From Oceanispirochaeta sp. (lineage in GTDB: Bacteria; Spirochaetota; Spirochaetia; DSM-2461): a stretch of 64,000 nt of DNA. Of this stretch, positions 15,190-30,359 are shown one piece after another. The position numbers and the translations under genes are program-made. The notes under the pieces were generated by a model, which did not search any database, was not told the origin of the DNA, and saw only the letters and a list, made by a program, of their open reading frames with translations. Within the stretch, counting starts at the first letter, position 1, and each line of letters begins with the position of its first letter. The stretch spans positions 576,001-640,000 of the forward strand of contig CAXXXD010000002.1 in assembly GCA_963663385.2 (NCBI GenBank). The letters are read 5' to 3'.

Positions 15190-15254
15190 GCAACCCGGAT
15201 GCGTCATGTCATATTTAAACTGTCGAAAATCCGGGTATTGCTGGAGGAGTTGCT

Positions 15255-16490
15255 ATGGAAAACCTCAAAAGCCGGGATCCCCTGCTGACAGAAATGATTA
15301 AGGAAGAAGAGAACCGCCAACGGGATAAAATCCGTCTGATCGCATCGGAAAACTATGTTTCCGCTGCGGTGCTGGAAGCGTCCGGAACCGTTTTAACCAA
15401 CAAGTATTCGGAAGGCTACAGCAGCAAGCGCTACTATGAAGGGCAGCAGATGATCGATAAGATCGAAGACCTTGCCACCGAACGGGCCAGAAAACTTTTC
15501 GGCGCCGATCATGCCAATGTGCAGCCCTATTCAGGGTCTCCCGCCAACCTGGCGGTCTACCTGGCTTTTATGAAACCCGGAGAAACCGCCCTTGGAATGG
15601 AGCTCTCCCACGGCGGGCATCTGACCCACGGCAGCCCCGTCAGTTTTTCCGGAAAATATTTTAATATAATCCACTATGGTTTGACCCCCGAGGGGGAGAT
15701 TGATTATGAGGCCATGGAAAAAGCGGCCCGCGAGTACAATCCAAAGATTATTATTGCGGGGCACTCCGCCTTTCCCGGTATCCCCGACTGGGAAAGGTTC
15801 AGAAAGATTGCCGATGAAGTCGGGGCGATTCTCTGGGTGGATATGGCCCACTTTGCCGGCCTGGTGGCCGGAGGCGTTCATCCCTCTCCCGTCCCCTATG
15901 CGGATGTGGTAACAACCACAACCCACAAAAGCCTGCGCGGTCCACGGGGCGGAATGATTCTCTGTAAAGCCGAGCATGCCGCAGCCATTGACAAGGCCGT
16001 CTTCCCCGGCTGTCAGGGGGGGCCTCATAACCATACGACCGCTGCCATTGCGGTTGCTCTGCTGGAAGCGGATACCCCCGAGTTCAGGGAGTATGCCGCC
16101 CGGATTGTTAAAAACGCCTCAGCCCTGGCCGATGCCCTGAGCGGATACGGATTCCAGCTGGTTTCGGGTGGAACGAAAAACCACCTGATGCTGATTGACC
16201 TGCGGAACAAGGGTATTACGGGAAAACAGGCCGCCAAGGCTATGGACCGGGCCGGAATTGTCTGCAACTACAACACAGTGCCCTTCGATGATGCCAAACC
16301 CTTCAACCCCAACGGCCTCCGTCTGGGAACCCCTGCGGTAACATCCCGCGGGATGAAAGAGGAGGAGATGAAGAAGATTGCCTCTTTTATCAACAAGGCA
16401 GTGGAGAACTGGCAGGATGAAGACCTGCTGGATGCCATGGCGGAAGAGGTAAAAACCTTCTGTGCCGCCTTTGTCCCCCCCGGACTCTAA
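15255..16490 (+). CDS. glyA: Serine hydroxymethyltransferase
   Basis: 'LIASENY', 'NKYSEGY..RYYEG', 'GGHLTHG', PLP lysine motif '[14 protein letters not shown]', '[13 protein letters not shown]'. Confidence 0.98.
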
Positions 16491-16515
16491 GCCTCCCTCC
16501 TGAATTCATTCTCTG

Positions 16516-16541
16516 AAACCGCTCTTTCGGGAGCGGTTTTT
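16516..16541 (+). terminator. Rho-independent terminator of glyA
   Basis: AAACCGCTC...GAGCGGTTT stem followed by a T-run. Confidence 0.8.
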
Positions 16542-16542
16542 C

Positions 16543-16579
16543 TTGAAAAAGTATTATACCAAAGTTATACTTAAAGTAT
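16543..16579 (+). promoter_or_regulatory. TA operon promoter with an operator-like palindrome; probably leaderless
   Basis: TTGAAA 16543-16548, 17 bp spacer, TATACT 16566-16571. The ATG is only 6 nt downstream with no SD; palindrome ATACTT-A-AAGTAT at 16567-16579. Confidence 0.65.
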
Positions 16580-16823
16580 GAAAACAGCAATTTCTATCCC
16601 GGATAGCACATTCTATAAAGCAGAAGAAACGGCGGAAAAGCTGGGCCTGCCCCGTAGTCAACTCTATACAAGGGCTCTGGAAGAGTATATGAGCCGCCAT
16701 AGGCGGGAACTTGTAACTGAAAAGCTGAATGAAGTCTACAGAGACCGGCAGGAGAGGGATGTGGCTTTCCTGAACGCCGGGAGGGTGGGACTGAAGAAGT
16801 CGACAGAAGATGATTCGTGGTGA
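16578..16823 (+). CDS. Ribbon-helix-helix antitoxin (ChpI/MazE6-like)
   Basis: 'MKTAISIPD..F..AE..A..LGLPRSQLY..AL' RHH pattern; overlaps the downstream toxin gene. Confidence 0.88.
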   Translation: MKTAISIPDSTFYKAEETAEKLGLPRSQLYTRALEEYMSRHRRELVTEKLNEVYRDRQERDVAFLNAGRVGLKKSTEDDSW

Positions 16824-17151
16824 AATATGGTGGGCGGATCTCGGATTGCCACAGGGCAGTGGACCCGGGTTCCGGAGACCGGTTGTTATTATTCAGGATG
16901 ATGCATTTAACCGCAGTCGGATTTCCACGGTCATCGTTGCATCCATTACATCAAACCTTGCCCTGGCTGAAGCCCCGGGAAATGTCTTTCTGGACGTCCG
17001 GGAGTCCAATCTTCCGAAGGACAGTGTGATTAATGTATCGCAGATTGCTACTCTGGATAAACTCTGTCTGATCGAAAAAGCCGGAGAGCTCCCCCCCGAT
17101 ACCCTGACAGAACTGAATCAGGGGCTGGAGCTGGTATTCGGGCTGCACTGA
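16810..17151 (+). CDS. mazF: PemK/MazF-family mRNA interferase toxin (ChpK-like)
   Basis: 'RGEIWWADL...GSGPGFRRPVVIIQ.D.FN', 'ITSN', 'LPKDSVINVSQI'. Confidence 0.93.
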   Translation: MIRGEIWWADLGLPQGSGPGFRRPVVIIQDDAFNRSRISTVIVASITSNLALAEAPGNVFLDVRESNLPKDSVINVSQIATLDKLCLIEKAGELPPDTLTELNQGLELVFGLH

Positions 17152-17156
17152 GAACG

Positions 17157-17192
17157 GCACCGCGGCAGTTCGAAGGATATCTGCCGCGGTGC
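17157..17192. terminator. GC-rich hairpin between convergent genes
   Basis: GCACCGCGGCAG / CTGCCGCGGTGC perfect 12-bp inverted repeat. Confidence 0.65.
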
Positions 17193-17202
17193 AGGGTAGG
17201 AA

Positions 17203-18564
17203 TCAGGCTATCTTTACGCCCTGTCCGAGCAGTTCTTTCTGCAGGTGAGAAATAGATAGATTTCTGGGCAGGCAGTCCTCTTTTACGGAGAGGGCTGCTG
17301 CCGCACCGGCTCCCTGTCCGGTTACGGTGCAGCACATCATGTTCCGCATGGAGGTGTGGGCAATCACATCTGCCGAAATACAGCGTCCCGCAACCAGCAG
17401 GTTGTCGATCTTTTCCGGAACCAGACAGCCGTAGGGAATCTGATAATAACGTCCCGTCAGCGGGAGGATCAGGTAACCGCTCCCGTCGATAAACTCGGGG
17501 AATATCCCGATACTGTCCTCGCAGCGTCCCTGGTTGAGCACATGATCCTTGGTCACCCGGCTGACTCCGTTTATCTGACGGGATTCTCTGGTCCCCAGGG
17601 TCATGCCGAAGTTTCTCAATCTGGCATTTTCAAAGCCGGGAATGTAGTGACGGAAGGCGTCTATGGCCCACATGGCCTGTTTCCGTCCTTCAATTTCCGC
17701 TCTGGTCAGGTCCCATACATCGGTACAGTCGTAACCGAAGGAATAGATTACATTCAGACCGCAGGCTTCGCCCGCTTTGGTAAAAGTGCTCCAGGTACCG
17801 GCGATGGACTGGGCATCCTCCGGGATTACCCCTTCCTCCTGAGCTTTGGAGAAGACCTCCTCCAGATAGGGACTGAAGAGCTCATCTTCCTTTCCGCTGG
17901 TGATAATGGACCAGTTCTTTCCCCAGTCTCCGTAAGTCGGGTGGAGTTCTTCGTTGACATATCTCTGAAACTTTTCCGCATCAACGCCGGCGCAGTGGAA
18001 CATGACGGTTACGCCCATCAGTTCCTCTTTGTTCCGCTGGGTAAATGATGCGCCTGCCCGCTGAGCTACGTCACCGTCTCCCGTACAGTCAATAACCCGC
18101 CTGGCCAGAATGGCCTGTCGGCCGGATTTGCTTTCCGTAATAACCCCGGTTATCCGGTTTTCTTCCATGACAACATCGGTCATCTGGCAGTGGAGCAGTA
18201 CCTGTACGCCGGATTCCTCCATTATTCTGTCCGCAACGACCTTGAAACCCTCCGTATCTATGACATGGCTTTCCGATTGGGGCTCCTTTCGGGCGATACC
18301 TTCTTTCACGGCCCGCTGTTCGAATTCGCATCCGATTCCCTGGCAGTCTACTGTTCCTTCATGGCGGTACCAGGCAAATGATTCGACACCTACCTGTGTC
18401 ATGTTCCCGCCCAGGCAGCCGTACCTTTCCATCAGCAGGGTATCCGCTCCGGACCGGGCGGAAGCCAGAGCCGCAGCCAGACCGGAAGGTCCGCTGCCGA
18501 CAACCAGAACTTCTGTTTCAGCCATAACGGGTATTTCTCTTCTTTCTTCAATAACTTTTTTCAT
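17203..18564 (-). CDS. FAD-dependent oxidoreductase, IbeA-like (PF12831 type), paralog 1
   Basis: Rossmann motif 'VLVVGSGPSG', 'GVESFAWYRHEGTV', 'EPQSES', 'ITESKSGRQAILA', 'IDCTGDGD', 'DCTDVWDLTRAEIEGRKQAM', 'FPEFIDG', 'RNMMCC'. These match motifs I recall from E. coli IbeA. Confidence 0.9.
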   Translation of the reverse strand: MKKVIEERREIPVMAETEVLVVGSGPSGLAAALASARSGADTLLMERYGCLGGNMTQVGVESFAWYRHEGTVDCQGIGCEFEQRAVKEGIARKEPQSESHVIDTEGFKVVADRIMEESGVQVLLHCQMTDVVMEENRITGVITESKSGRQAILARRVIDCTGDGDVAQRAGASFTQRNKEELMGVTVMFHCAGVDAEKFQRYVNEELHPTYGDWGKNWSIITSGKEDELFSPYLEEVFSKAQEEGVIPEDAQSIAGTWSTFTKAGEACGLNVIYSFGYDCTDVWDLTRAEIEGRKQAMWAIDAFRHYIPGFENARLRNFGMTLGTRESRQINGVSRVTKDHVLNQGRCEDSIGIFPEFIDGSGYLILPLTGRYYQIPYGCLVPEKIDNLLVAGRCISADVIAHTSMRNMMCCTVTGQGAGAAAALSVKEDCLPRNLSISHLQKELLGQGVKIA

Positions 18565-18631
18565 TTTAAAATATATCCTGTATCAAGATAGGCATCTCAA
18601 ATCTACCGATCGGGCCATATCGTAAGTAAGG

Positions 18632-18754
18632 AGCTGTTGCAAAAACCCTGCAACAGCCCGCTCCCCACCTTCCTTCCTTTGGGAGAAGGATTCAGTGGGT
18701 AATATAATTATTTATCACCCTCTGCCTTTGGAAGAGGGGTAAAGGAGCGGTGGG
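18632..18754. repeat. Cluster of intergenic hairpins
   Basis: GCTGTTGCA/TGCAACAGC stem, then two related hairpins with TTTG loops (CCTTCCTTCC-TTTG-GGAGAAGG and CCCTCTGCC-TTTG-GAAGAGGGG). Confidence 0.5.
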
Positions 18755-20395
18755 TTATTCCGCCTCTTTGCTGGCAAATACGGGGATCCCTTTCCCTTTT
18801 TCTTCGGGTATGAATTTTTCCGTGTTTTCTACATAGATCTTTCTGTCTTTTCCCGGGAGGGGGATTCCTTCCGGAAAATCAGCCTTAAGCTGCCGCATAA
18901 AGCTCATAATCAGGACTACCATGGCAAAGCAGATAGGAAATCCTGTCAGGATAGATACGGTCTGGAGGGGTTGCAGTGCGCTGGGGTTCAGGAGGTAGAG
19001 GCCCAGGGAGACAGCGCCGGCCAGGATCAGCCAGAAAGCCATGTTCCATTTCTGGGGTTCCTGATCGCCTTCCAGCTTTTTTTCGGAGGCGGCAGCCAGG
19101 GAGTAACCGACAGCCGCATGGCCTGTGATGTAGGAGAGCAGACAGATAACCGTAAAGAAAATGATCATCCAGAACCCGCCGGGTGCGTGACGGAACATTT
19201 CGATTACAACACCTCCCCGACCTTTTTCACTCAAGGCAGTTACCAGGTCTGCTGTGCCGCTCATCTGCAGGTGGATGCCGAAGTTGGGAAGAACCATATA
19301 AAAGAGCATACAGCCCAGGGACCCGGCGATCAGCCCGCCCAGAACCATCTGTTTGATTGTGCGACCCTTTGAAATCTTGGCGATGAAGAGACCGAAGGGC
19401 AGAGCGTATACAGCCCACCAGGAGAAGTAGAAGATCGTCCAGCCCTGGGGAAAACCGTTATTGGAGATGGCATCGGTTGTAAAACTCATGTAGACGAAAT
19501 TCTGGATCATCATACCCAGAGCATCGGTAGACTGGTTCAGGATAAAGAAGGTTGGACCGAAAAGGAGGAGAATCAGAAGAAGCACAATGTCCCCTTTTAC
19601 ATTCCAGTCGCTCAGTTTGGCTACGCCCTTATTCAGTCCCAGTACCAGAGCCAGCAGGGGGATGAAGGTCCACAGGAGAATCACAATGGTGTCCAGTATA
19701 ACATTGGACTGTTCCATCCCAAGCATATGGGCAAAGCCGCTGGAGATGGCGGGGGTTCCAAGAGCAAGGGATGTAAGAACCCCGCCGAGGAGACCGAAAA
19801 TATAGAGGAAGTTCAGGGTATGACCGGCCAGACCATCGGATTTTTTTCCAAGGAGGGGACGGGCATACTCACTCATCTTCATGTTTTTCTCTTTCTTTAC
19901 AAAGAAGAAGTATCCGATGGGAACGGCGGCTGCTATATAAAAAGCCCAGGCTGAGGGACCCCAGTGGAACATCCCGTAGGTTGACGCCCATCGGGCGGCT
20001 TCTTCGCTTCCCGCTTCCACACCGAAGGGGGGGGCGCCCATAATCCAGATCCATTCGATGGCGCCCAGGTAAAGGAGGCTTCCGCCCGTACCGGATGTCA
20101 GGATCATTCCCAGCCAGGTGAATGTGGAGAACTGGGGTTTCTCATCCTTTCCTCCCAGAACAATGTTTCCCATTCTGGAAAAAGCGAAATACAGGCACAG
20201 AATCAGCATGGCAACTGTAAACAAGAGGAAAAACCATCCCAGTTCATGTGTTGTAAAAGCATGAATTTTGTTCAGGGCGGCGTTGCTCTGTTCGGGGAGT
20301 GCAAAAAACAGGACTCCCATTACAAGGGTAAAGATAGTGGCAGGCAGAAAGACGGCTTTGTCTATTCTCATGCCTGATGAGTTTTGATTACTCAT
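18755..20395 (-). CDS. BCCT-family (betaine/carnitine/choline) transporter
   Basis: 'KPQFSTFTW', 'FHWGPSAWAFY', 'WTIFYFSWW....PFGLFIAKISKGRTIKQ', about 12 TM segments. Confidence 0.93.
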   Translation of the reverse strand: MSNQNSSGMRIDKAVFLPATIFTLVMGVLFFALPEQSNAALNKIHAFTTHELGWFFLLFTVAMLILCLYFAFSRMGNIVLGGKDEKPQFSTFTWLGMILTSGTGGSLLYLGAIEWIWIMGAPPFGVEAGSEEAARWASTYGMFHWGPSAWAFYIAAAVPIGYFFFVKKEKNMKMSEYARPLLGKKSDGLAGHTLNFLYIFGLLGGVLTSLALGTPAISSGFAHMLGMEQSNVILDTIVILLWTFIPLLALVLGLNKGVAKLSDWNVKGDIVLLLILLLFGPTFFILNQSTDALGMMIQNFVYMSFTTDAISNNGFPQGWTIFYFSWWAVYALPFGLFIAKISKGRTIKQMVLGGLIAGSLGCMLFYMVLPNFGIHLQMSGTADLVTALSEKGRGGVVIEMFRHAPGGFWMIIFFTVICLLSYITGHAAVGYSLAAASEKKLEGDQEPQKWNMAFWLILAGAVSLGLYLLNPSALQPLQTVSILTGFPICFAMVVLIMSFMRQLKADFPEGIPLPGKDRKIYVENTEKFIPEEKGKGIPVFASKEAE

Positions 20396-20467
20396 ATAAA
20401 TCCTCCATTTATATTTGATTATTCTAAACCCGCTATTCGCAGGTGAATATCCTTAAATTCTTACAGG

Positions 20468-21745
20468 TCAGACAGGAACAGCGCCATGTTCGACTGTCAA
20501 AGCCACAATATCTTTCGGGTCCACATCCCGTGAGGCAATCCCTTTTCTGACCGCCAGTGCCGCAGCGGCTCCGGCGGCCTGCCCCATAGCCATACAGGTG
20601 CACTGGGCCCGGATCCCTGCCAGGGATTTTCTGTCGGAAGAGAGAATCCTTCCGGCAACTGTAATTCGTCTCGATCCTCTGGGGATCAGGGACCGGAAGG
20701 GAACTTTCGGTGTCATATTCTCTTTCTCATGGAAGATTTCCCTGCAGCCGTCCTCTTCATTGTGCAGATCGATGTAGTTGAAGGCGTTGCATATCTGGTC
20801 GGGGTATTCCACGGCATCCATAAACTCATCCAGCACCACATTATGTTCCCCCGCGATCCTGGCTCCCTCCCGGGAAAGGGCCCGGGCATACATCGTTTTC
20901 AGAACGGCCCGTTCCGCGCCGGGAATTCTGTCTTTAATAAAACGGTAGACCCGCATCATAACTTCCCGTCCGGCAATATTGGCGGCGGTCTGCCCTTCCG
21001 CGTCCGAAGTGTCGCATCCATAGATATGGGAGGAATTGTGTCCTCCCATCTGAAGCAGCCAGAGGAAGGGGTAGGTATCAAAGTATGCCCAGTCCCCCTT
21101 CTTCAGCCGCCCCCGCTCCATAGCCTCTTCGTATATCTTCTGTACTTCCCCCTGCCAGACCTGCTGAAGATCAATGTCTTCAATGCGGTACTGCAGGGTT
21201 CCCGGCTGCCGGACATCCGCTTTAATTGTTTCCAGCCCCAGGGCTCTGACCGCATCGGCGTCTCCTGAGGCATCGATGATCTCTTTGCAGACAGTCGTTC
21301 TTTTAATCCCTCTGGCATAGGAAATCACTTCCCAGGAATCGCCGATCTGTTTTACTTCTCCAACAAATTCTCCGTAGTGCAATCGAACACCGGCTTTTAT
21401 CGCTTCCTGTTCTGCCAGAGAAGCGTATATGGGTACATTTATATGGCTGTAATAACCGGGTGTATCGACAGCGCGTCTGTCCTTCCAGGGTTTCGGCATG
21501 ATCCCTTCGGCTTCCCGGCTTTTCATATAGAGTTCCCAGGGAATCCCCTGGACAACCGGGCCGACGGGAGAGTGGAAATGGTTCGGCATGAATACACCGC
21601 CTTCCGTCATTGTTCCTCCGAGCATATTACCGGCTTCAATCAGACTGACGAGGATACCTTCGCGCCCCGCCTGTATGGCGGCTATATGTCCAGCTGTTCC
21701 GCCTCCGGCTATCAGCAGATCTGCCTGTTCTCGAAGTTCTCTCAT
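20468..21745 (-). CDS. FAD-dependent oxidoreductase (PF12831 type), divergent from the IbeA-like pair
   Basis: 'LLIAGGGTAG', 'LGGTMT', 'IIDASGDAD', 'QPGTL', 'VPFRSLIP....VAGR', 'CMAMGQAAG'. Confidence 0.88.
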   Translation of the reverse strand: MRELREQADLLIAGGGTAGHIAAIQAGREGILVSLIEAGNMLGGTMTEGGVFMPNHFHSPVGPVVQGIPWELYMKSREAEGIMPKPWKDRRAVDTPGYYSHINVPIYASLAEQEAIKAGVRLHYGEFVGEVKQIGDSWEVISYARGIKRTTVCKEIIDASGDADAVRALGLETIKADVRQPGTLQYRIEDIDLQQVWQGEVQKIYEEAMERGRLKKGDWAYFDTYPFLWLLQMGGHNSSHIYGCDTSDAEGQTAANIAGREVMMRVYRFIKDRIPGAERAVLKTMYARALSREGARIAGEHNVVLDEFMDAVEYPDQICNAFNYIDLHNEEDGCREIFHEKENMTPKVPFRSLIPRGSRRITVAGRILSSDRKSLAGIRAQCTCMAMGQAAGAAAALAVRKGIASRDVDPKDIVALTVEHGAVPV

Positions 21746-21803
21746 TCAATTTCTCCCGCTATAAGTATGATTTTATTTTTAAAAATTGAATTATCCTGAG
21801 ATT

Positions 21804-22055
21804 ACGATAGAGTTACTTCTTTCAGTTTGTCAAGAAAAATTTTAAAAAAGAATATTAGATTTTGATAAATGAAATCACAAGGCAATGATCTTTTGAAAAA
21901 TAATGATATAATCGGAAAAACGTCTATTAAAATGATAAAATTGAATTTTAATATGATATCCGATTGCCTTTATTAAAACAAAATTATCATATCAGAACTT
22001 GACGGATGGAATCTTGCGTTGTAAAATCCGGAATTGTATTTTGATAAATAAAACT
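21804..22055. promoter_or_regulatory. Divergent promoter region with putative IclR boxes
   Basis: Minus-strand TTGACA (21833-21828). GATTTTGATAAATGAAATC (21858-21876) and TATTTTGATAAATAAAACT (22037-22055). Confidence 0.5.
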
Positions 22056-22179
22056 CTTTTTAATATATAACTGGATTGGGTAATGTAAAGCTTCCCCGGG
22101 AAGCCCGCTTGAAAAAAGGGAATTATGATACGGAAGTATCGATAACAGAAAGTTAATATATGATTTTTGGAGGAGAGAA

Positions 22180-23862
22180 ATGTTAGTTTCTGAAGTAGTA
22201 GTTAAAATAATGGAAGCTGAAGGGATCACTGATGCCTTTGGTATTCCCGGAGCTGGGATTAATCCGGTTTATAAATACCTGGATATGTCTGAACAGATCA
22301 GTCACTATACCATGCGCCACGAAGCGGCCTGTGTTCATGCGGCTGACGGTTATTACAGGGCAAAGCACGAGATGGCCCTGGCTATCTGTACATCCGGTCC
22401 CGGTGCGACAAATTTTGTAACCGGACTTTATACCGCCCATATTGATTCCATTCCCCTTCTGGCTGTTACCGGTCAGGGTGCCTCCGGTCTGCTTGGCAAG
22501 GATGCGTTCCAGTGTGTGGATATGGTGGATATTGCTTCTCCCATCTGTAAGAAAGCCTGGTGCATTACCGATGCCGCAAAGGTTCCCGAGATTATGAAGG
22601 AAGCCTTTAAGACCGCCAGAGAGGGAAAACCCGGTCCTGTACTGCTCGATCTTCCCCTGGATGTTCAGAAAACAGATATAGATTTCGACCCTGCGTCGTA
22701 TAAGCCGGCCGAGATTTTCAGGCCCGAAGCAGACAGGTCTCTGGTTGCCAAGGCGGTGGAGATGCTGGATAGTGCGGAAAATCCCATTATGATCATGGGG
22801 GGCGGTGTTATCCTCTCCCATTCCGAAAAGAAGATGGTTGAACTGGCCGAGTATATGAATATTCCCGTCGTTACCACTTATATGGCCAAGGGGGGAATCC
22901 CCGAGAATCACCCCCTTCATGTACAGCATGTGGGAATCCAGTGCGGCGCCGCCAATATCGGCAACAGGTACTTCCTGGAGTCGGATGTGGTACTCGGAGT
23001 GGGCTGTCGTTTTACAGACAGGCATACCGGTGCGGTGGACGTTTACAGGGGAGACCGTAAATTTATCCATGTGAATATCGCCGAAAGTGAAATCGGCAAA
23101 ATCATCCCTGCGGAGATCGGGATCGTTGCCGATGCTTCCGATGCTCTGGATGCTTTTCTGGAGGAAGCCGGAAAGAAAGCCAAACGAAGCGGAAGCGCCC
23201 GTATTGCCAATATCCCCGCGGACAAAGCGGCTATGACTGTCGCCAGAATTCCCGGAAAGCCCGGAGAAATCAAACCCCAGACGGTTTATGCCGAAATGAA
23301 TGAAAATTTTGACGATGAGACCTACTGGACAACAGGCTGCGGTCTTAACCAGATATGGTCCGGCCAGTATCAGGCAATCAATGCGCCCCGGAAATACCTG
23401 CCCTCCGGCGGTGCGGGGACTCTGGGATTTGACATCCCGGCCGCCATCGGCGCCTGTGTCGGTTCCGGAAAAGGAAAAGTTGTCTGTGTTATGGGCGACT
23501 TCGGGTTCACTTTCATGGTGGAAGAGCTGGCTGTGGCTGCGAAATACGACCTTCCTGTTTCCGTCCTGATTCTGAACAACGCCTATCTCAGTCTGATCCG
23601 CCAGAACCAGGTTTATGCCTTCGACTTTGAATATGCTGTTGAAATGTCCGAAAACAAGGACTATATCGACTATGTAAAAGTATCCGAGGGGCTGGGCTGC
23701 AAGGCTGAACGGGTTCTGCAGGATGGGGATATCGCCGCTGCCATGAAGCGGGCTAAAGAATCGGATAAACCCTATGTGGTGGAACTCTTTGTCGAAGACG
23801 CCACTGACTGTAACATGGGGGCGGCTCTGGATAAAATCGCCAATTTCAACGAATCAATGTAA
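22180..23862 (+). CDS. gcl: Glyoxylate carboligase (ThDP/FAD enzyme)
   Basis: 'AFGIPGAGINP', 'RHEA....ADGYYRA', 'TSGPGATN..TGLYTA.IDSIP', 'RFTDRHTG', 'GDFGF.F.VEELAVAA', 'NNAYLSLIRQ'. These are Gcl-type rather than AHAS-type motifs. Confidence 0.85.
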   Translation: MLVSEVVVKIMEAEGITDAFGIPGAGINPVYKYLDMSEQISHYTMRHEAACVHAADGYYRAKHEMALAICTSGPGATNFVTGLYTAHIDSIPLLAVTGQGASGLLGKDAFQCVDMVDIASPICKKAWCITDAAKVPEIMKEAFKTAREGKPGPVLLDLPLDVQKTDIDFDPASYKPAEIFRPEADRSLVAKAVEMLDSAENPIMIMGGGVILSHSEKKMVELAEYMNIPVVTTYMAKGGIPENHPLHVQHVGIQCGAANIGNRYFLESDVVLGVGCRFTDRHTGAVDVYRGDRKFIHVNIAESEIGKIIPAEIGIVADASDALDAFLEEAGKKAKRSGSARIANIPADKAAMTVARIPGKPGEIKPQTVYAEMNENFDDETYWTTGCGLNQIWSGQYQAINAPRKYLPSGGAGTLGFDIPAAIGACVGSGKGKVVCVMGDFGFTFMVEELAVAAKYDLPVSVLILNNAYLSLIRQNQVYAFDFEYAVEMSENKDYIDYVKVSEGLGCKAERVLQDGDIAAAMKRAKESDKPYVVELFVEDATDCNMGAALDKIANFNESM

Positions 23863-23864
23863 GT

Positions 23865-23907
23865 GCAAACAGCCGTCCTTTTAGATTATCAGGGGACGGC
23901 TGTTTGC
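23865..23907 (+). terminator. Hairpin after gcl
   Basis: GCAAACAGCCGTCC / GGACGGCTGTTTGC 14-bp inverted repeat. Confidence 0.7.
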
Positions 23908-23984
23908 CAAGCATTTGGAAGATTTACAATTATCGTAATATGGGGTATTTTATACCTTAAAACAGTCAAAACAGGGAGTTCCAG

Positions 23985-24791
23985 ATGCCGTCTGAAGGAG
24001 TCAAGAAAAATCAATCGATCGGGAAAGCCTTTACCATTCTGGAGGCTATGGTGGAAGAGGGGCGTTCCCTTCGTTTACTGGACCTGGCCCAGAAGCTGAA
24101 TATACCATCCAGTACGGTGATCCGCTACCTGAATACCCTGATCGATTACAACTATGTAAAACAGGAGCCTGAGACTTCCCGCTACTATCTCACTCTGAAA
24201 CTGTCCAGTCTGGGTAACAAGGTCTACTCCCGGTTTTCCTACCAGGAAGCTATGAAAAAGTACCTATACAGGATAAGCGATACCCTGCAGGAGTCGGTTT
24301 CCCTTTCCATCGAACAGGATATGAATGTCGTCTATATTGATGCGGTGGAGGGGCCGGATCACATCCTGCAGACGCTGCAGCGGATCGGAAAAGTGGCTCC
24401 CATGCACAGTACCGGATCCGGAAAGGTTCTGCTTCTAAACTGCAATGATCAGGAGCTGGACCGGTTTATCGATATCAAGGGACTGCCGGGTTATACGCCC
24501 CATACGCTGACAACCCGTCACTCTTTTCTGAAGGTTATGGCCAAAGTCCGTGAGAGCGGATTCGCCTACGATGATGAAGAGTGTGAGATGGGCGTAAAGT
24601 GTGTGGCTTTCCCGGTTCGGGACTTTACCGGTAAAGTGATTGTCGCCATAAGTGTTTCCGCTCCCATCTCCAGGATGGGTGATATCAGGGAAGAGGCGAT
24701 TATTGAAGTTTTAAGTGAAGTGACAGCAGAGGCGTCCCGCGAATTCGGGTATAATCCTCAGAAAACACCCGTTGCTGTCAGACAGGATTAA
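23985..24791 (+). CDS. IclR-family transcriptional regulator
   Basis: 'QSIGKAFTILE', HTH, 'PMHSTGSGKVLL', 'GFAYDDEE...GVKCVAFPV'. Confidence 0.95.
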   Translation: MPSEGVKKNQSIGKAFTILEAMVEEGRSLRLLDLAQKLNIPSSTVIRYLNTLIDYNYVKQEPETSRYYLTLKLSSLGNKVYSRFSYQEAMKKYLYRISDTLQESVSLSIEQDMNVVYIDAVEGPDHILQTLQRIGKVAPMHSTGSGKVLLLNCNDQELDRFIDIKGLPGYTPHTLTTRHSFLKVMAKVRESGFAYDDEECEMGVKCVAFPVRDFTGKVIVAISVSAPISRMGDIREEAIIEVLSEVTAEASREFGYNPQKTPVAVRQD

Positions 24792-24814
24792 TTCAATAAA
24801 TACAGTAAAATCAG

Positions 24815-24845
24815 AACCCGCCGATCTTCTGTTCGGCGGGTTTTT
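24815..24845. terminator. Bidirectional Rho-independent terminator
   Basis: AACCCGCCGA...TCGGCGGGTT followed by a T-run, between convergent genes. Confidence 0.75.
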
Positions 24846-24866
24846 CAGTGACTGTTAAAGTTCTCC

Positions 24867-25058
24867 TTAATGGTGTTTTCTGTCCTGAATCACTTCCTGT
24901 ATCAGAGGGATCAGGAAAAAGATACAGCCGATCAGAAACATGATACTGCCCGTCAGATTGCAGGGATCATCGGTATTTATACCGCTGATCAGGTATAGAA
25001 CAGCGCAGACTAGGAATAAAAACCAGCCGCCCAGCTGGAATTTATGACTGGTTTTCAT
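24867..25058 (-). CDS. Small two-TM membrane protein
   Basis: 63 aa with two hydrophobic segments; GAGGTG/GAGAG SD; 18 bp downstream of the IbeA-like paralog 2. Confidence 0.65.
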   Translation of the reverse strand: MKTSHKFQLGGWFLFLVCAVLYLISGINTDDPCNLTGSIMFLIGCIFFLIPLIQEVIQDRKHH

Positions 25059-25076
25059 AGGCTCTCACCTCAAAAA

Positions 25077-26438
25077 TTAGTATTTTACCCGAACGCCCTG
25101 ATGTTCCAGTGCAGCCTGGACGGTTCGTATATTCACATCCCGGCAGGTCGTTCCCGTCTTTACGGCTACGGCAGCGGCCGTTCCGGCTCCCTGGCCCGAT
25201 ACGGCACAGCACATCATATTCCGTGTCGCCGCATGGGATATTCTATCTCCCGCGATGGAACGGCCGGCTACAAGAAGGTTCTCCACTTTTAAAGGCACCA
25301 GGGCTTTGTAGGGCACCTGAAAAAAGCGGCCCGTTACGGGAAGCCTCAGGATGCCGAATCCGTCTACGAACTCGGGGAATATCCCGATGGAATCGGTAAA
25401 GCGTCCCTCTTCCATCACATCTTTTCCTGTCATGCTGTATTCGCCTGCAATCTTGCGGGAATCCCTGGTGCCGATGGCCATGGGATAGTTTCGCAGCCGG
25501 GCATTTTCAAAGCCGGGGATTGTTTTATTCATGGCCCTGATGGCATCCAGTACCCGGGCCCTGCCTTCCATCTCCGCATAGGTCAGATCGCGGATATCCG
25601 TGCAGTCCCGGTTTTCCAGGTGGACCAGGTTGAGGTAGGTGGCGCATCCGTCATCGGTTATGGTGCTCCAGGAACCGCAAAGGTTCCATTCGCTGGGAGG
25701 GATAATGCCTTCTTCGATTGCCCGGGTGAACTGTTTTTCAAAATAGGGGCTGAACATATCATTTTCAAGCCCCGACGTATTCTGAGCCCAATCCTGTCCC
25801 CAGTCGTTATAGGTGGCGGGCTCGCTCTTTATGTACTCCATAAAGCGTTTTTTATCCACGCCGCAGCAGTTAAAGGCCATCGTAACGGCCTGCTTTTCAC
25901 TTTTCGGGTTTTCTATATAGGGAGCACCCGCCTTGGCCGCCAGATCGGCGTCGCCTGTGGCATCTATAACCACTCGGGCCAGTATTGCCTGCCGTCCCGA
26001 TTTGCTTTCCGTTATAACCCCCCTGATAATATTTCCTTCCAGAATAGGTTCAACGCCATAGCAGTGAAGCAGGGGAAGAGCTCCCGATTCTTTCAGCAGG
26101 ACGTCGGCAACATGCTTGAATTTTTCCGTATCCAGAGCATGGCTGTCTGACTGGACTTCCTTGTTTGCGGCGCCCATTGCCATGGCGCGCTTCTCAAACT
26201 CGAAGCCGATACCATCGGACTCAATGGTTTTTTCATGGCGGTACCAGGCCAGGGATTCTACACCGACCACGGTCATATTTCCGCCGAAACAGCCATATTG
26301 CTCCACCAGCATGGTTTTTACACCGGACCGGGCGGCGGCGATTGCAGCGGAAAGCCCTCCGGGACCGCCCCCGACGACCAGCACATCTACTTTATCCAGA
26401 ACGGGAGTTTCTCTTCTTTCCTCAATAATATATTTCAT
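25077..26438 (-). CDS. FAD-dependent oxidoreductase, IbeA-like, paralog 2
   Basis: 453 aa, same length and motifs as 17203..18564 ('GVESLAWYRHE', 'ITESKSGRQAILA', 'MFSPYF', 'GSWST', 'FPEFVDG', 'RNMMCC'). Confidence 0.9.
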   Translation of the reverse strand: MKYIIEERRETPVLDKVDVLVVGGGPGGLSAAIAAARSGVKTMLVEQYGCFGGNMTVVGVESLAWYRHEKTIESDGIGFEFEKRAMAMGAANKEVQSDSHALDTEKFKHVADVLLKESGALPLLHCYGVEPILEGNIIRGVITESKSGRQAILARVVIDATGDADLAAKAGAPYIENPKSEKQAVTMAFNCCGVDKKRFMEYIKSEPATYNDWGQDWAQNTSGLENDMFSPYFEKQFTRAIEEGIIPPSEWNLCGSWSTITDDGCATYLNLVHLENRDCTDIRDLTYAEMEGRARVLDAIRAMNKTIPGFENARLRNYPMAIGTRDSRKIAGEYSMTGKDVMEEGRFTDSIGIFPEFVDGFGILRLPVTGRFFQVPYKALVPLKVENLLVAGRSIAGDRISHAATRNMMCCAVSGQGAGTAAAVAVKTGTTCRDVNIRTVQAALEHQGVRVKY

Positions 26439-26454
26439 ACGCAGATCCTTTTTA

Positions 26455-27738
26455 TCAGGGCATTCCGTAACCGAACAGTCCCGGCAGGAACAGGGTTGTC
26501 TGGGGAATATAGGTTATTATGAACAGAACACAGATCAGAACCAGTAAAAACGGTACAATTTCCTTAATTACTTCCTCGAAGGATACTTTGGCGATATCCG
26601 CTGCAACATAGGCACAGACTCCCAGCGGGGGGGTGATCAGCCCGATATTGAGGTTCAGTTCCATAACGACGCCGAAATGCATCAGATTAATTCCCATGGA
26701 TGTCAGAAGGGGCATCAGGACAGGTATAAGGATCAGCATAACGCTGATACCTTCCATAAAGCATCCCAGAATAAGAATGAAAACATTCAGGATCAGCAGA
26801 ATGACATACTGGTTCGAGCTGAAGCCTACCAGTATCCGGGCCAGTTTCGCCGGAATCCCTTCATAGGTCAGAATCCAACCGAATACAGCCGCAAAGGCAA
26901 TAATCAGCATAATGCGGCTGGTCCCTTTTCCTACGGATATCAGGGTCTCCGCCAATCCTCTGAATGACAGTTCCTTATAGATAACCATGCCGAGGAATAT
27001 GGCATAAAGAACGGACAGAACCGCTGCTTCGGTAGGGGTGGCAAATCCTGTCATAATCCCCGCCAGGATAATAACGGGAGTCAGCATAGGGAGAAGAGAG
27101 TGGAGAAGCGAACTCAGTATGGCAGAGAACGCGGCTCTCGGGTAAACTCTGAAACTCCGTTTTTTTGCCTCCAGATAGACGATAATCATCTGGGCGAAGG
27201 TCATAACAAGGGCCGGTATGATTCCCGCGATGAACAGCCCGGCAATGGATGTTCCCGTCATGGCCCCGTATATGACAAAGCCCAGACTGGGGGGCATAAT
27301 GGTCCCCACTGTGGAAGATGCTGCAGTAACCGCTGCGGAAAAGGCCGGGTCGTACTCCTCCTGCTTCATGTAGTTGATTTCAATGGTTCCCAGGCCCGCG
27401 CTGTCGGCCGTGGCGGAACCGGACATGCCGGCAAAAATCAGGCTGGATACAATATTCACATGTCCCAGACCGCCGGGAATATGGCCTACGAGAGATTTGC
27501 AGAAGTCGAAGAGGCGGTTGGTTACGCCTCCCATATTCATGATCTGCCCTGCCAGCATAAAGAGAGGGATTGCCAGAAGGGTAAAGGACTCGAATGTTCC
27601 CAGCATTATCTGGGGGATTGTTTCCAGGGGAACACCGTTCGTTAAAAAATAGAAGAGACAGGACGCTCCCAGGCTGAATGCCACAGGAACTTTTACCATC
27701 ATAAGGACTAAAAATATTAAAATGAAAAGACAGCTCAT
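26455..27738 (-). CDS. dctM: TRAP transporter large permease
   Basis: 'FTLLAIPLFMLAG', 'GGLGHVNI...FAGMSGSATAD', 'PPS', 'TPTEAA', 'IGLITPP'. Confidence 0.95.
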   Translation of the reverse strand: MSCLFILIFLVLMMVKVPVAFSLGASCLFYFLTNGVPLETIPQIMLGTFESFTLLAIPLFMLAGQIMNMGGVTNRLFDFCKSLVGHIPGGLGHVNIVSSLIFAGMSGSATADSAGLGTIEINYMKQEEYDPAFSAAVTAASSTVGTIMPPSLGFVIYGAMTGTSIAGLFIAGIIPALVMTFAQMIIVYLEAKKRSFRVYPRAAFSAILSSLLHSLLPMLTPVIILAGIMTGFATPTEAAVLSVLYAIFLGMVIYKELSFRGLAETLISVGKGTSRIMLIIAFAAVFGWILTYEGIPAKLARILVGFSSNQYVILLILNVFILILGCFMEGISVMLILIPVLMPLLTSMGINLMHFGVVMELNLNIGLITPPLGVCAYVAADIAKVSFEEVIKEIVPFLLVLICVLFIITYIPQTTLFLPGLFGYGMP

Positions 27739-27788
27739 TATGTAAAGTCTCCGTTTTGGATGATCATTTTCTCAATCGGGATAAATTG

Positions 27789-28271
27789 TTATTTTTCTGC
27801 AAACCAATGAGTTTGTTTTACCGTTCTAAAGAGATTCCATAAGGTAAAAACCGTTATACCGATAAATCCCAGAACAATGGCGAAGGTGTACCAGGGGATG
27901 GGGAGTCTGGCGGCAACAGAGGTGATTCCGACCTGTTTTCCCATTGTCTGGATAGAGTCGTAAATCATGATCGAGCCGATAAACAGTATGAGAAGTTCTG
28001 TAAAAATATCCAGAGCTCTTTTCAGCCCCGGTCTGGCTCTGTTGTAAAAGAAGTCCACCTCCAGATGAGTCTTTTCAAAACTGCAGCTGGCGCTTCCCGT
28101 AAAGGTGAACCAGCAGAAGGCGAACAGGGATATCTCTTCCGTCCAGGTAAACGGCATGTTGAACCCGTAACGGGAAACAATCTGGAGGATGACGCATGCA
28201 ATGATTGTCACCAGTGAAGCGAAAAGCAGGATGACATAAAGGGCATCCAGCTTTTTTAAAACTTTTTCCAT
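27789..28271 (-). CDS. dctQ: TRAP transporter small permease
   Basis: 'QIVSRY....FTWTEEI', 'HLEVD', 4 TM segments. Confidence 0.92.
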   Translation of the reverse strand: MEKVLKKLDALYVILLFASLVTIIACVILQIVSRYGFNMPFTWTEEISLFAFCWFTFTGSASCSFEKTHLEVDFFYNRARPGLKRALDIFTELLILFIGSIMIYDSIQTMGKQVGITSVAARLPIPWYTFAIVLGFIGITVFTLWNLFRTVKQTHWFAEK

Positions 28272-28361
28272 ATTTTTTTTCCATCCTTTTTTACAGGAAC
28301 AGGGCTGATGCAGGAATGATAGTTGGCATAAATGCAGCAGCCCGTTTGCTATCCGGTTGTT

Positions 28362-29363
28362 CTAGTTTTCCAGGAATGACTGAATTTCTGCCCAGAGACC
28401 GGCATCCCATTCCCCATCGGCTTCCGCCTGGATCATTGTGCCGGGATAAACCTGATCTCTGAAAGCATCCTTGTCGATCCGGTGAACAACAACCCCTTCC
28501 TCTTCCATGAGGCTGATGTATTTGTCCTGCAGGTTGTTGTTTTCAACGATAAACCAGGCGTCCACTTCGTCCCATGTTTTTCTGATCATCTCTTTATTCT
28601 CATCACTCAGAGACTGCCACCAGGCATCGTTGACAATGAAACCGGTAATGTCGTAGCTGTGATCAGTAATTACGAGGTGTTTGGCCGATTCGTGCCATTT
28701 CATGTTGTACAGGGATTCCACATGGTTTTCAGCCCCGTCCACAACGCCCTGTTTCAGAGCCAGATAAGTTTCACTGAATGCTACGGGAGTGGGGGCAACA
28801 CCCAGGGCTTTAAAGCTTTCGATGTAGGAGTAGCATTCGGGAACCCTGAGTTTTACCCCGTTCAGGTCGCTCAGATCGGAGACCGGTTCGGATACGAGGA
28901 TCTGACGGGGGAGACGGGTCCAGCCGGCAGTAACAAAGCGGATTCCGTGTTTCGCAGCCAGCTTATCGTTCAGTTTCCCAAGAGCCGTGGATTCCGCGAT
29001 CAGCTTGGCCTGTTCATTGGAACCGGCTGTGAAGGGGAAGTCTGTCAGGGAGAATCCCGTGTCGAACTGGGCCAGCCAGCTGATTGATCCTCTGAAGGCT
29101 TCCAGAGTACCTGATTTGACCAGTTCCAGCTGTTTGTTGGCACTTCCCATCTGGGAAGCATGGAAGCATTTCACATCGATAGCACCCTGGCTTTTATCTT
29201 CGATCAGCTCTTCGTAGCGGTCCATGGCAACAGCTCCGAGGTTGGCTACGTTTTCAATGTCTCCGACCCTCATGGTAACGGAACCGCTTTCATCCTGCTG
29301 ACCATTGGCGAACAGCACCAGGCTTGTCAGCAGCACCAGAAACAGGGATAAGGCTTTTTTCAT
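28362..29363 (-). CDS. dctP: TRAP transporter substrate-binding protein
   Basis: 'DLNGVKLRVP' (conserved Arg), 'PTPVAFSETYLALKQGVVDGAEN'. Start taken at ATG 29363, after AGGAG; signal peptide ends 'LFANG'. Confidence 0.93.
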   Translation of the reverse strand: MKKALSLFLVLLTSLVLFANGQQDESGSVTMRVGDIENVANLGAVAMDRYEELIEDKSQGAIDVKCFHASQMGSANKQLELVKSGTLEAFRGSISWLAQFDTGFSLTDFPFTAGSNEQAKLIAESTALGKLNDKLAAKHGIRFVTAGWTRLPRQILVSEPVSDLSDLNGVKLRVPECYSYIESFKALGVAPTPVAFSETYLALKQGVVDGAENHVESLYNMKWHESAKHLVITDHSYDITGFIVNDAWWQSLSDENKEMIRKTWDEVDAWFIVENNNLQDKYISLMEEEGVVVHRIDKDAFRDQVYPGTMIQAEADGEWDAGLWAEIQSFLEN

Positions 29364-29753
29364 ACTCAACTCCTTTTTGAAAGACCTTTTTATGTTTCGA
29401 ATTAGATTTTAATAATTGAAACTATAATTCATGATACATCACTTTTGTGGCTTGTCAACAGAAAAAAGCTGTTCCCCAATGTGACCCCCACATTCTGATT
29501 TGAGGGCATCAATACCGGTATCTGAATTGAAAATATTTTATAAAACATTTATATGTAAAGAAATAATATATGTAAGGCTGTTTTGTCTATTACAGGAGGA
29601 AAACCTGATCGGCAAATATTGTAAAGTTAATTCATTAAAGATAAAATTATGAAAAAGTTTCTGGAATAGAAATATAATGACTGTTTTTTCATATAATACA
29701 TATTTCAATAATTTTAATTATTAAAATGAACGTTTTGATAATTGGAATATTGA

Positions 29754-29921
29754 GACAGAGCTGGAATGGCAGGAAAATCCTATATGACCTGCACCGGCTC
29801 CATAAGCGCCGTAACTTCCGCCGTGGAAGCGGGGATCAGGCATGCAGGAGAGTCCGGACCGGTAATGGCCAGCCGTATCATACCTGCGCCGGATGAGCAA
29901 TTCAAACGTTTACTTATTTAA
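29754..29921 (+). pseudogene. C-terminal remnant of a BMC shell protein (PduT-like)
   Basis: Reads GMAGKSYMTCTGSISAVTSAVEAGIRHAGESGPVMASRIIPAPDEQFKRLLI*, matching the BMC pattern 'G.GGK.Y....G..SAV..AVEAG...VIP.P'. In-frame TGA at 29751; N-terminal part absent. Confidence 0.75.
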
Positions 29922-30034
29922 CCGCCCCTTATTTCCTCTCAATCCTGAATAATACTGGAACATTATCTGAACTTTCCCGGATCTGCATTGTTTACGTTTA
30001 GCCCTCGGGATAGATTGTCTCATGAGGTCCGACT

Positions 30035-30274
30035 ATGGCTGACAAAATGCTGATTATCAATTGGGTTATGATTTTCCTTTCACTTTTTTCTGTTCTGATT
30101 GTAGTGGATACATTTCTGGAGGAGGATTCTCATCATAAGGAGTTGACTGATTCTCCCCTGGAAACCCCGGAATACCAGTTTCTGATAGATATGCTTTTCT
30201 CCGGGGAGCCTGTAGATGATGAAAATGATCTCTCGTCACTTCCCGAGACTCAGGAAAATTCCGCAGCTGATTAA
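30035..30274 (+). CDS. Hypothetical small protein with one TM segment and an acidic tail
   Basis: 79-aa ORF, GAGG SD, hydrophobic N-terminus. Confidence 0.5.
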   Translation: MADKMLIINWVMIFLSLFSVLIVVDTFLEEDSHHKELTDSPLETPEYQFLIDMLFSGEPVDDENDLSSLPETQENSAAD

Positions 30275-30301
30275 TTTATGAAATTTACTCCTCCGTCCCT
30301 C

Positions 30302-30346
30302 TTGCCTCAATAATCCTATTCTTTTAGTATGCCTACCGGTAGGTAT
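30302..30346 (+). promoter_or_regulatory. TetR gene promoter and palindromic operator
   Basis: TTGCCT 30302-30307, 17 bp spacer, TAGTAT 30325-30330. Perfect palindrome CCTACCGGTAGG at 30332-30343 over the predicted +1. Confidence 0.7.
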
Positions 30347-30359
30347 GTATGGAGGGAAT

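Follow-up and report, generated by a model that had tools for sequence, protein, structure and literature searches.

A block of catabolic genes in the spirochete Oceanispirochaeta sp. appears to be a close counterpart of the metabolic core of GimA, the E. coli island that carries ibeA, with orthologs of GimA's cglE-type flavoprotein and of the BCCT transporter that accompanies it. Research on IbeA since the 1990s has treated it as an invasion factor of meningitis-causing E. coli. The block occupies positions 17203-29369 of a 64,000-nt window (i.e., the whole stretch of DNA analyzed; assembly GCA_963663385.2, contig CAXXXD010000002.1, positions 576,001-640,000, forward strand). Open reading frames (ORFs) and scans against Pfam and NCBIfam gave a count of ten genes here, nine of them named, in three operons: A (minus strand; FAD-2, BCCT, and FAD-1), B (plus strand; a thiamine diphosphate (ThDP) enzyme and an IclR regulator), and C (minus strand; DctP, DctQ, DctM, and FAD-3). 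We read the block as a GimA-type, transporter-coupled flavoenzyme catabolic module in which small onium or anionic carboxylates probably feed glyoxylate into a branch like that of glyoxylate carboligase (Gcl), and we assign this reading a probability of roughly one half. The locus is a variant of a known, biochemically uncharacterized GimA-type system. An earlier, sequence-only reading of this DNA had named three PF12831-type flavoproteins, a BCCT transporter, a ThDP enzyme, IclR, and a tripartite ATP-independent periplasmic (TRAP) transport system, all of which are present where it placed them, and the resemblance to GimA now appears stronger and more specific than it had proposed.

The three flavin adenine dinucleotide (FAD) enzymes, FAD-1 (17203-18564, minus strand; 453 aa), the divergent FAD-2 (20468-21745, minus strand; 425 aa), and FAD-3 (25077-26438, minus strand; 453 aa), each contain a full-length PF12831 domain scoring well above the gathering cut-off of 27 bits (343.7, 229.7, and 314.9 bits, respectively). 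In full-length BLASTP comparisons, FAD-1 was 65% identical to the BCCT-linked (cglE-type) flavoprotein of GimA, its counterpart there, and 53% identical to IbeA (E = 1e-170), while FAD-3 showed 52 and 51% identity to the same two proteins (E = 2e-161 with IbeA); FAD-1 and FAD-3 are 56% identical to each other. The IbeA motifs pointed out previously are visible in these alignments, and the similarity to IbeA is far above the generic PF12831 level. At such identities FAD-1 and FAD-3 belong to the IbeA/cglE subfamily. FAD-2 falls outside it, with 22% identity to FAD-1 and FAD-3 and 22-24% to the GimA genes (tblastn). Since the N-termini of FAD-1 and FAD-3, as read from their sequences, open directly with the FAD-binding glycine motif, neither has a signal peptide, in agreement with what had been noted. 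A distant DNA search against 5426 complete E. coli genomes recovered relatives of the FAD-1 gene in 247, of which 107 had one place covering at least 80% of the query; the best E. coli match was the BCCT-linked paralog, not ibeA.

Each flavoprotein paralog appears to keep its own transporter (BCCT, NhaC, or TRAP). A quick IQ-TREE run with SH-aLRT support was performed on 53 PF12831 proteins from the window, locus L001, and 28 of the 31 genome-contig loci found with FAD-1 (loci are cited below by number). FAD-1, which had been taken for the counterpart of IbeA, was placed instead in a cglE clade of 12 rows (SH-aLRT 100) comprising the GimA BCCT-linked protein, sequences from Serratia, Vibrio, Photobacterium, a Neisseriaceae bacterium, and an unclassified gammaproteobacterium, and three spirochete sequences, FAD-1 included. 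A BCCT gene lay within two genes of ten of these rows, the others being L005, where the flavoprotein gene adjoins one for a major facilitator superfamily (MFS) transporter, and L007. The IbeA clade (SH-aLRT 100) held four rows, from E. coli, two Serratia, and Photobacterium, with NhaC adjoining in all four; no window protein fell within it, and no NhaC homolog was found in the Oceanispirochaeta genome. FAD-3 formed a clade with a relative from L026 (two rows, SH-aLRT 100), and DctM/DctQ genes adjoin both. A Chloroflexota clade of 15 rows (SH-aLRT 98) is associated with family-5 (Opp/Dpp-type) ATP-binding cassette (ABC) importers. Lastly, the FAD-2 clade (11 rows, SH-aLRT 100) spans Vibrio, Photobacterium, spirochetes, and Chloroflexota, and an FAD-1-like gene is found within two genes of FAD-2 in ten rows and, by a separate reading of the neighborhood, in the eleventh (L017) as well. 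All five PF12831 genes of the genome (E ≤ 1e-20) lie inside 32 kb of the 5.3-Mb assembly, so their grouping exceeds chance. Two small proteins lacking Pfam and NCBIfam matches were observed beside members of the family: one of 128 aa directly after FAD-2 in three Vibrionaceae loci (e.g., L010:12709-13092) and one of 204 aa in six Chloroflexota loci (e.g., L016:8321-8932).

In an annotated E. coli record, GimA lies between fim/uxu genes and yjiG/yjiH and comprises ptsP-dhaL-dhaK, a glycerol dehydrogenase gene, an MFS transporter, a 'FAD-dependent oxidoreductase', a 74-aa ORF, a BCCT transporter, glycerate kinase, 2-hydroxy-3-oxopropionate reductase, hyi, gcl, dhaR, ibeA, and nhaC. The record thus agrees with the earlier statement that GimA carries ibeA, a BCCT gene, and gcl. 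The flavoprotein-BCCT pair, also remarked on previously, is common to GimA and the window, whose BCCT transporter is 55% identical to that of GimA. Both loci also contain a second flavoprotein paralog with a transporter of its own and a Gcl-type ThDP enzyme. In contrast, the phosphotransferase system/dihydroxyacetone kinase genes, glycerol dehydrogenase, hyi, glxR, glxK, a DhaR-like regulator, and the IbeA-NhaC pair occur only in GimA, whereas FAD-2, the TRAP-linked paralog, and IclR occur only in the window, and the ThDP enzymes of the two loci (41% identity) belong to different clades, that of the window retaining a Glu discussed below. Of the full set of four GimA operons, the window has just the cglE-type flavoprotein, BCCT, and Gcl-like counterparts. 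These operons are given in a section of PMC2878320 as ptnIPKC, cglDTEC, gcxKRCI, and ibeRAT, with a G+C content of 46.2% compared to 50.8% for the chromosome, and a passage of a review (PMC8618662) assigns IbeA to Pfam12831 and states that GimA operons may serve energy metabolism.

The BCCT transporter (18755-20395, minus strand; PF02028, 440 bits) belongs to the DddT/CaiT branch. Its best curated family is that of the carnitine/gamma-butyrobetaine antiporter (NF002887, CaiT; 421 bits vs. a cut-off of 541), and its best relative of solved structure is DddT (362.8 bits, compared to 250 for CaiT and 151 for BetP), which an excerpt of PMC13270143 describes as a Na+-coupled importer of dimethylsulfoniopropionate (DMSP) from Psychrobacter sp. 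D2. Residues W140, W320, W321, Y324, and S204 of DddT, as listed there, correspond by hand count on the alignment to W145, W326, W327, Y330, and S209 of the window protein, which thus keeps both the aromatic box that binds the onium group and the Ser that binds the carboxylate. However, the entry residues Trp105 and Tyr112 of DddT map, again by hand, to L110 and W117, and unlike its relatives the window gene is not clustered with a DMSP lyase or cai genes. According to the same excerpt, two DddT-like homologs from metagenomes carried no DMSP, and sequence alone cannot separate the substrates of BCCT transporters. We conclude only that the substrate is probably a small onium carboxylate, and make no finer claim.

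Operon C encodes the TRAP system, with DctM, the large permease (26455-27738, minus strand; PF06808, 410.9 bits; TIGR00786, 413 vs. a cut-off of 268), DctQ, the small permease (27789-28271, minus strand; PF04290, 98.4 bits), and DctP, the solute-binding protein (28362-29369, minus strand; PF03480, 195.4 bits; NF037995, 160.7 vs. a cut-off of 50), together with FAD-3. The dctP gene is real, although its end had been set at 29363; the start is a TTG at 29369, and 29363 marks an ATG two codons inside the gene. Since the usual ligands of TRAP systems are carboxylates or sulfonates, this linkage suggests that the substrate of FAD-3 is anionic. Searches of the PDB revealed no close relative with a defined ligand for DctP (best match, 124 bits) or for a family-5 binding protein from Anaerolineae.

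The ThDP enzyme of operon B (22180-23862, plus strand; 560 aa, three domains) is encoded ahead of the IclR-family regulator (23985-24791, plus strand; PF01614 and PF09339). It is nearer to Gcl than to acetolactate synthase (ALS), both against the PDB (~451 bits for Gcl vs. 304 for the best ALS) and against hidden Markov models (608 vs. 488). The score against the biosynthetic ALS model, TIGR00118, was 488.3, compared to a cut-off of 538.35. Because two ALS genes that exceed this cut-off are present elsewhere in the genome, we rejected a housekeeping ALS, and a sulfoacetaldehyde acetyltransferase of the Xsc type was also rejected (267 bits vs. a cut-off of 620). At the cofactor-activating position, Glu is found in the L026 protein, in 120 of 120 listed family homologs, and in the genome's own two ALS proteins, whereas Val occupies this site in the four gamma-proteobacterial Gcl proteins that cover it (a fifth, from L007, is gapped) and in all five of the solved-Gcl alignments printed (7ct6 and four E. 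coli entries). The analysis defines a large, Glu-retaining sister clade of Gcl, whose public names are inconsistent (glyoxylate carboligase, tartronate-semialdehyde synthase, or acetolactate synthase). A phylum-wide genome search for the enzyme at E ≤ 1e-150, a threshold that is probably too strict, recovered 1 of 301 genomes, namely its own.

To describe the genomic context of this clade, we clustered ORFs from 80 loci of a metagenome scan with a clade alignment and scanned representatives against Pfam and NCBIfam. Neighbors of the Glu-type gene included IclR (27 of the 80 loci), a D-2-hydroxyacid dehydrogenase (15), a PF12831 protein (13), a xylose-isomerase-like TIM barrel, usually adjacent (12), an iron-dependent alcohol dehydrogenase (8), hydroxypyruvate isomerase (Hyi; 4, at 363 bits vs. 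a cut-off of 353), GlxR (4), GlxK (4), BCCT (2), and FAD-2 (2). Five of the 13 loci with a PF12831 gene hold one that exceeds 50% identity to cglE or FAD-1. L092 and L093 contain the whole window set in another order: iron-dependent alcohol dehydrogenase, FAD-3 (64-66%), DctMQP, ThDP enzyme, IclR, FAD-1 (69%), BCCT, and FAD-2. In L088, an MFS gene, a cglE-type FAD gene (55%), a second FAD gene, and another MFS gene precede IclR, the ThDP enzyme, the TIM barrel, and a 2-hydroxyacid dehydrogenase, and the series continues with DhaK, DhaL, GlxK, and GldA. L054 has DhaL, DhaK, two FAD genes, the ThDP enzyme, the TIM barrel, and the 2-hydroxyacid dehydrogenase, while L049 has the ThDP enzyme, Hyi, GlxR, and two FAD genes (one at 54%). 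In the remaining eight loci the PF12831 gene is 30-35% identical and represents other subfamilies.

Viewed from the flavoprotein side, 8 of the 11 sources with a cglE-clade gene also encode Gcl or a Gcl-like enzyme, as the predicted co-occurrence with gcl would have it. True Gcl is encoded near the cglE-clade gene in L001, L002, L004, L007, and L010; in L029, Gcl, Hyi, and GlxR lie 14 kb away on the same contig (L119); and the Glu-type enzyme takes this position in L026 and in the window. The other three sources are L008, where Hyi and GlxR are found at the end of an 8-kb contig, L003, a 6.3-kb contig, and L005, which has no Gcl-side gene at the locus and whose genome gave no such match at E ≤ 1e-100. 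We read the spirochete Gcl-like clade as a probable non-orthologous replacement that keeps the same partnership. The window block itself differs from the canonical gcl-hyi-glxR-glxK pathway in lacking isomerase, reductase, and kinase genes, but the likeness extends beyond the ThDP enzyme's closeness to Gcl, in that its clade elsewhere adjoins the TIM-barrel isomerase, the 2-hydroxyacid dehydrogenase or GlxR, and GlxK. Since the Glu-type enzyme fills the place of Gcl in GimA, in the company of an isomerase, reductase, and kinase, the comparison supports a Gcl-like role for it, although it scores below membership of Gcl proper.

A second, possibly glyoxylate-linked partner recurs outside these groups. 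In 10 of 33 sources, from Chloroflexota, Desulfobacteraceae, and Bacteriovoracaceae, the flavoprotein is found with a class-V aminotransferase (~370 aa), which was confirmed with Pfam in 6 of 10 loci scanned. Its best NCBIfam scores, none of which reached the cut-off, were against the models for pyridoxamine-pyruvate, PhnW, and aspartate-glyoxylate (BhcA) aminotransferases, so that it is best termed AGXT/BhcA/PhnW-like. It could provide an alternative sink by converting glyoxylate to glycine. A phosphonate (PhnW/PhnX) reading of the Anaerolineae loci, in which the aminotransferase occurs with a haloacid dehalogenase-family gene, was judged unlikely because of the below-cut-off scores and because BCCT-linked loci hold no such genes. 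In two Bacteriovoracaceae loci (L030:4988-13911 and L028), the flavoprotein occurs with an IlvD/Edd-type dehydratase, glycoside hydrolase family 31, a GPH-family sugar transporter, GntR, and the class-V aminotransferase, a context that resembles glycoside or sulfoquinovose-type utilization.

In the pathway that we propose, a small zwitterion (ammonium or sulfonium plus carboxylate) would enter through the DddT/CaiT-like BCCT transporter and an anionic relative through the TRAP system. FAD-1 (probably dimerized with FAD-2) and FAD-3 would then dehydrogenate the carbon beside the heteroatom, and the product would hydrolyze to a short oxo-acid, most likely glyoxylate, and a dealkylated amine, sulfide, or alcohol. 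The Gcl-like ThDP enzyme would convert glyoxylate to tartronate semialdehyde, and the products of unlinked genes elsewhere in the genome, i.e., a 2-hydroxyacid dehydrogenase (69% identical to the type that adjoins the ThDP enzyme) and a glycerate kinase homolog (40%), would carry it on to phosphoglycerate. IclR would repress the operons until substrate or glyoxylate is present. Release of glyoxylate is the simplest way to account for the recurrence of Gcl, Gcl-like, and aminotransferase genes, and we give it about even odds, since both the triose/glycerol genes and quaternary-amine chemistry leave real scope for other substrates.

The pairing of FAD-1 with FAD-2 is suggested by structure prediction. 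An AlphaFold2 model of FAD-1 was of high quality (pLDDT 91.3, pTM 0.92), and three predictions of a FAD-1/FAD-2 complex gave ipSAE values of 0.60, 0.84, and 0.84 (median 0.84), compared to 0.00 for the best control. The runs shared at least 77% of contacts, with partner pLDDT of at least 87. Among solved complexes, 116 of 157 attain the ipSAE mark thus passed, as do 2 of 215 mismatched pairs, although these counts are a rough guide here because our own alignments were used. FAD-1 and FAD-2 are therefore predicted to bind each other. A working analogy is offered by the heteromeric amine-oxidizing flavoenzymes (sarcosine oxidase, opine oxidase, and archaeal proline dehydrogenase), which have two different flavoprotein subunits side by side and oxidize a C-H bond beside a heteroatom to give an oxo-acid or aldehyde. 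However, these are members of the DAO family, not PF12831, with no sequence relation beyond the FAD fold; their structural likeness to FAD-1 is generic (Z ~17; proline dehydrogenase, sarcosine oxidase, and opine dehydrogenase subunits, Z 16.6-17.9), and binding of the window subunits is itself a prediction.

Several observations weigh against the glyoxylate module. The ThDP enzyme had been called gcl, and it is Gcl-like only: its scores fall below both curated Gcl cut-offs (NF008431, 608.3 vs. 791; TIGR01504, 507 vs. 711.2), and it has Glu48 at the cofactor-activating position, as does ALS. Replacement of this canonical Glu by Val is the hallmark of Gcl, and Val-to-Glu variants of the E. coli enzyme reportedly keep some activity, according to a 2008 paper. 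The genes hyi, glxR, and glxK are not found beside the block, and no Hyi homolog was found in the genome. Classical flavin amine oxidation would be inapplicable to a quaternary ammonium, whose nitrogen lacks a lone pair. Searches of full-text literature returned no enzyme activity, substrate, or reaction for the IbeA/cglE flavoprotein subfamily. Comparison of the FAD-1 model to the PDB (Foldseek, VIA wide search) returned only generic two-domain flavoproteins (TM ≤ 0.54, TMq ≤ 0.49, Z ≤ 20.6), sequences of solved structures matched FAD-1 at the Rossmann level only, and in the Protein Atlas FAD-1 and FAD-2 fell in clusters named just 'FAD-dependent oxidoreductase' or 'IbeA family'. As for the complex, E. 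coli and Serratia have no FAD-2. The predicted interface is built from corresponding segments in FAD-1 and FAD-2 and may therefore mirror a homodimer mode common to the family and not an obligate heterodimer. The proteobacterial loci, moreover, are not mutually independent. What stands of the interpretation that was first drawn from this DNA is the IbeA-level similarity, the BCCT pair, and the co-occurrence with Gcl or a Gcl-like enzyme; a true gcl and orthology to IbeA do not.

Glycerol-related genes provide an argument for another substrate. GldA, DhaK, DhaL, and PtsP are encoded near the family in L001, L002, L004, L007, and L029; DhaK and DhaL are present in L054 and L088, the latter also with GldA; and in L025 (Lachnospiraceae) glycerol kinase (GlpK), GlpA/B-like genes (GlpABC), and GlpP directly follow BCCT and the FAD gene. 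Glyoxylate does not explain such genes, and these loci also count against its release. Genes for 2-hydroxyacids recur as well (LarA-like genes in L015 and L026, glycerate 2-kinase in L015, and two lactate/malate dehydrogenase-family genes, with Ldh_1_N and Ldh_1_C, in L027), choline dehydrogenase (878 bits vs. a cut-off of 605) represents a cluster in L015, L018, and L019, an MttB-family gene is found in L020, and L031 has genes for a corrinoid protein and a uroporphyrinogen decarboxylase (URO-D)-like protein. The triose/glycerol arm and the methylated-amine link are as recurrent as the Gcl arm, and the window has neither. These genes would fit a triose, or C3, route in which the substrate carries a glycerol or 3-substituted 2-hydroxypropionate moiety, as do deacylated betaine-lipid head groups, and yields glycerol, dihydroxyacetone, glyceraldehyde, or hydroxypyruvate, with glyoxylate absent or a second product. 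We regard this route as rather unlikely. The window block, L026, L092, and L093 lack glycerol and dihydroxyacetone genes, and the DhaK and DhaL homologs elsewhere in the genome are weak (31-33% identity). In addition, glyoxylate is the simplest explanation for the presence of true Gcl in the gamma-proteobacterial loci, the pocket residues of the BCCT transporter match those that bind the small molecule DMSP, and the papers listed by one search included none on bacterial catabolism of betaine-lipid head groups, such as that of the algal lipid DGCC. A further proposal, which we consider a long shot, is that the cglE/IbeA family, acting as a FAD-1/FAD-2 heterodimer, would catalyze oxygen-independent cleavage between an onium center and a carboxymethyl or acetal carbon. 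Glycine betaine or dimethylsulfonioacetate may then be split to trimethylamine or dimethylsulfide and glyoxylate, and the deacylated DGCC head group may give glycerol, glyoxylate, and choline. If true, such cleavage would be a new route of betaine and betaine-lipid breakdown in marine bacteria, sediment anaerobes, and GimA-positive E. coli and would explain the role of the 'invasin' IbeA.

The three operons could also be mere neighbors in an accessory catabolic island, with the ThDP-IclR pair serving a separate pathway. Modules for transport and catabolism are mixed throughout the 60 kb around the block, G+C is 0.49-0.54 over positions 14001-28000 compared to 0.41-0.46 in the first 14 kb, 67 of the 80 ThDP loci have no PF12831 gene within reach, and a Lachnospiraceae genome keeps the ThDP enzyme and IclR apart from BCCT and the FAD gene. 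We consider this improbable, however, because the same gene set recurs in rearranged form in L026, L092, and L093, and because a different type of Gcl is linked to the same flavoprotein clade in Proteobacteria. Less probable still is that the flavoproteins are reductases or serve in stress protection, either as an electron sink acting on an unsaturated or oxidized onium compound or as the basis of an H2O2 resistance that a 2012 paper is said to have found as a phenotype of ibeA. The structural matches to FAD-1 do include geranylgeranyl-reductase-like proteins (Z 20.6), FixC (Z 20.5), and urocanate reductase (Z 18.7), as well as fumarate reductases (Z 18-21 overall), many hosts are anaerobes, the BCCT transporter is close to the antiporter CaiT, and IbeA is labeled a 'putative intracellular survival' oxidoreductase by NCBI. 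Nevertheless, these matches are generic and tied with amine oxidases, and the recurrent Gcl, Hyi, GlxR, GlxK, and aminotransferase point to carbon use instead of respiration. Slightly more doubtful still is the possibility that the transporter imports DMSP and that the block is a new DMSP catabolic route, as the score against DddT, the conserved four aromatic-box residues and Ser204 equivalent, and the many homologs from marine bacteria might suggest. DMSP breakdown pathways are not known to give glyoxylate, neither a DddD-type CoA-transferase nor a DddX-type ADP-forming ligase family was detected among the window ORFs scanned, and the DddT-like homologs without DMSP transport caution against reading the substrate from similarity.

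The presence of this counterpart of the GimA core supports the view that the members of the so-called invasin family are enzymes that break down nutrients. The GimA flavoprotein-transporter pair is present in a distant phylum, each paralog is tied to an importer of its own, the flavoprotein-BCCT pair recurs with a Gcl or Gcl-like branch, including cases in which the enzyme is of another clade, and the first flavoprotein has a second one as its predicted binding partner. Together, the importer ties, the Gcl link, and the predicted pairing narrow the search for substrates to small carboxylates of onium or anionic type, so that the IbeA/GimA question becomes testable in non-pathogenic organisms and with purified proteins.

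Promoter and terminator calls in the block are pattern matches only. A divergent promoter region (21746-22179) separates the FAD-2 and ThDP operons, and a consensus scan found promoter-like sites in it at 21999-22027 (plus strand) and 21833-21804 (minus strand); the best such site (29431-29458, minus strand; 11 of 12 consensus positions) lies upstream of dctP. Terminator-like hairpins follow FAD-1 (17081-17099, minus strand) and FAD-3 (25023-25038, minus strand), and a perfect 10-bp hairpin resembling a terminator lies between the convergent IclR and FAD-3 genes (24815-24842, minus strand). A search of the promoter regions for shared operators returned AT-rich words only. A 15-base AT-rich word is common to the two promoter regions (at 21854 and 29401, with one mismatch), and a 15-base palindrome is located at 21936 in the divergent region. 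These could be candidate IclR operators, but the evidence is weak and chance is a likely explanation in such AT-rich DNA.

Beyond the block, the raised G+C content described above and the position of the spirochete FAD-1 sequences, nested within an otherwise proteobacterial clade, are compatible with horizontal acquisition. The remaining two PF12831 genes of the genome (762 and 458 aa) lie just upstream of the window; in this stretch (contig positions 569187-572844) and at window positions 21-1052 they are accompanied by a sugar-type ABC importer (a family-1 binding protein and two ABC permeases) and a LacI regulator. Positions 8701-14965 encode GntR, a URO-D-like (MtaA-like) protein, a family-1 binding protein, two UgpAE-like permeases, and a 427-aa PF03313 (serine-dehydratase-alpha-like) protein that has no NCBIfam match, and look like a separate uncharacterized uptake module. 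A ZMP/ZTP riboswitch (RF01750; 15110-15195, plus strand; 54.1 bits vs. a gathering cut-off of 39) lies directly upstream of the gene for serine hydroxymethyltransferase (SHMT; 15255-16490), a second paralog of which is found elsewhere in the genome (53% identity). SHMT had been considered as support for a glycine route and was dropped, since control by the ZTP riboswitch means that it gives no support to the pathway. A small ORF with a weak helix-turn-helix match and an overlapping PemK/MazF-type toxin ORF (93.7 bits) at 16578-17151 (plus strand) are, by their family matches, a putative type II toxin-antitoxin pair at one edge of the catabolic block. At the other end, the 975 bp between dctP and a TetR gene (29370-30344) gave no match in an Rfam scan at E ≤ 0.1; this region is AT-rich, with several promoter-like sites, and its far end is entered by a single 80-aa ORF (30236-30478, minus strand).

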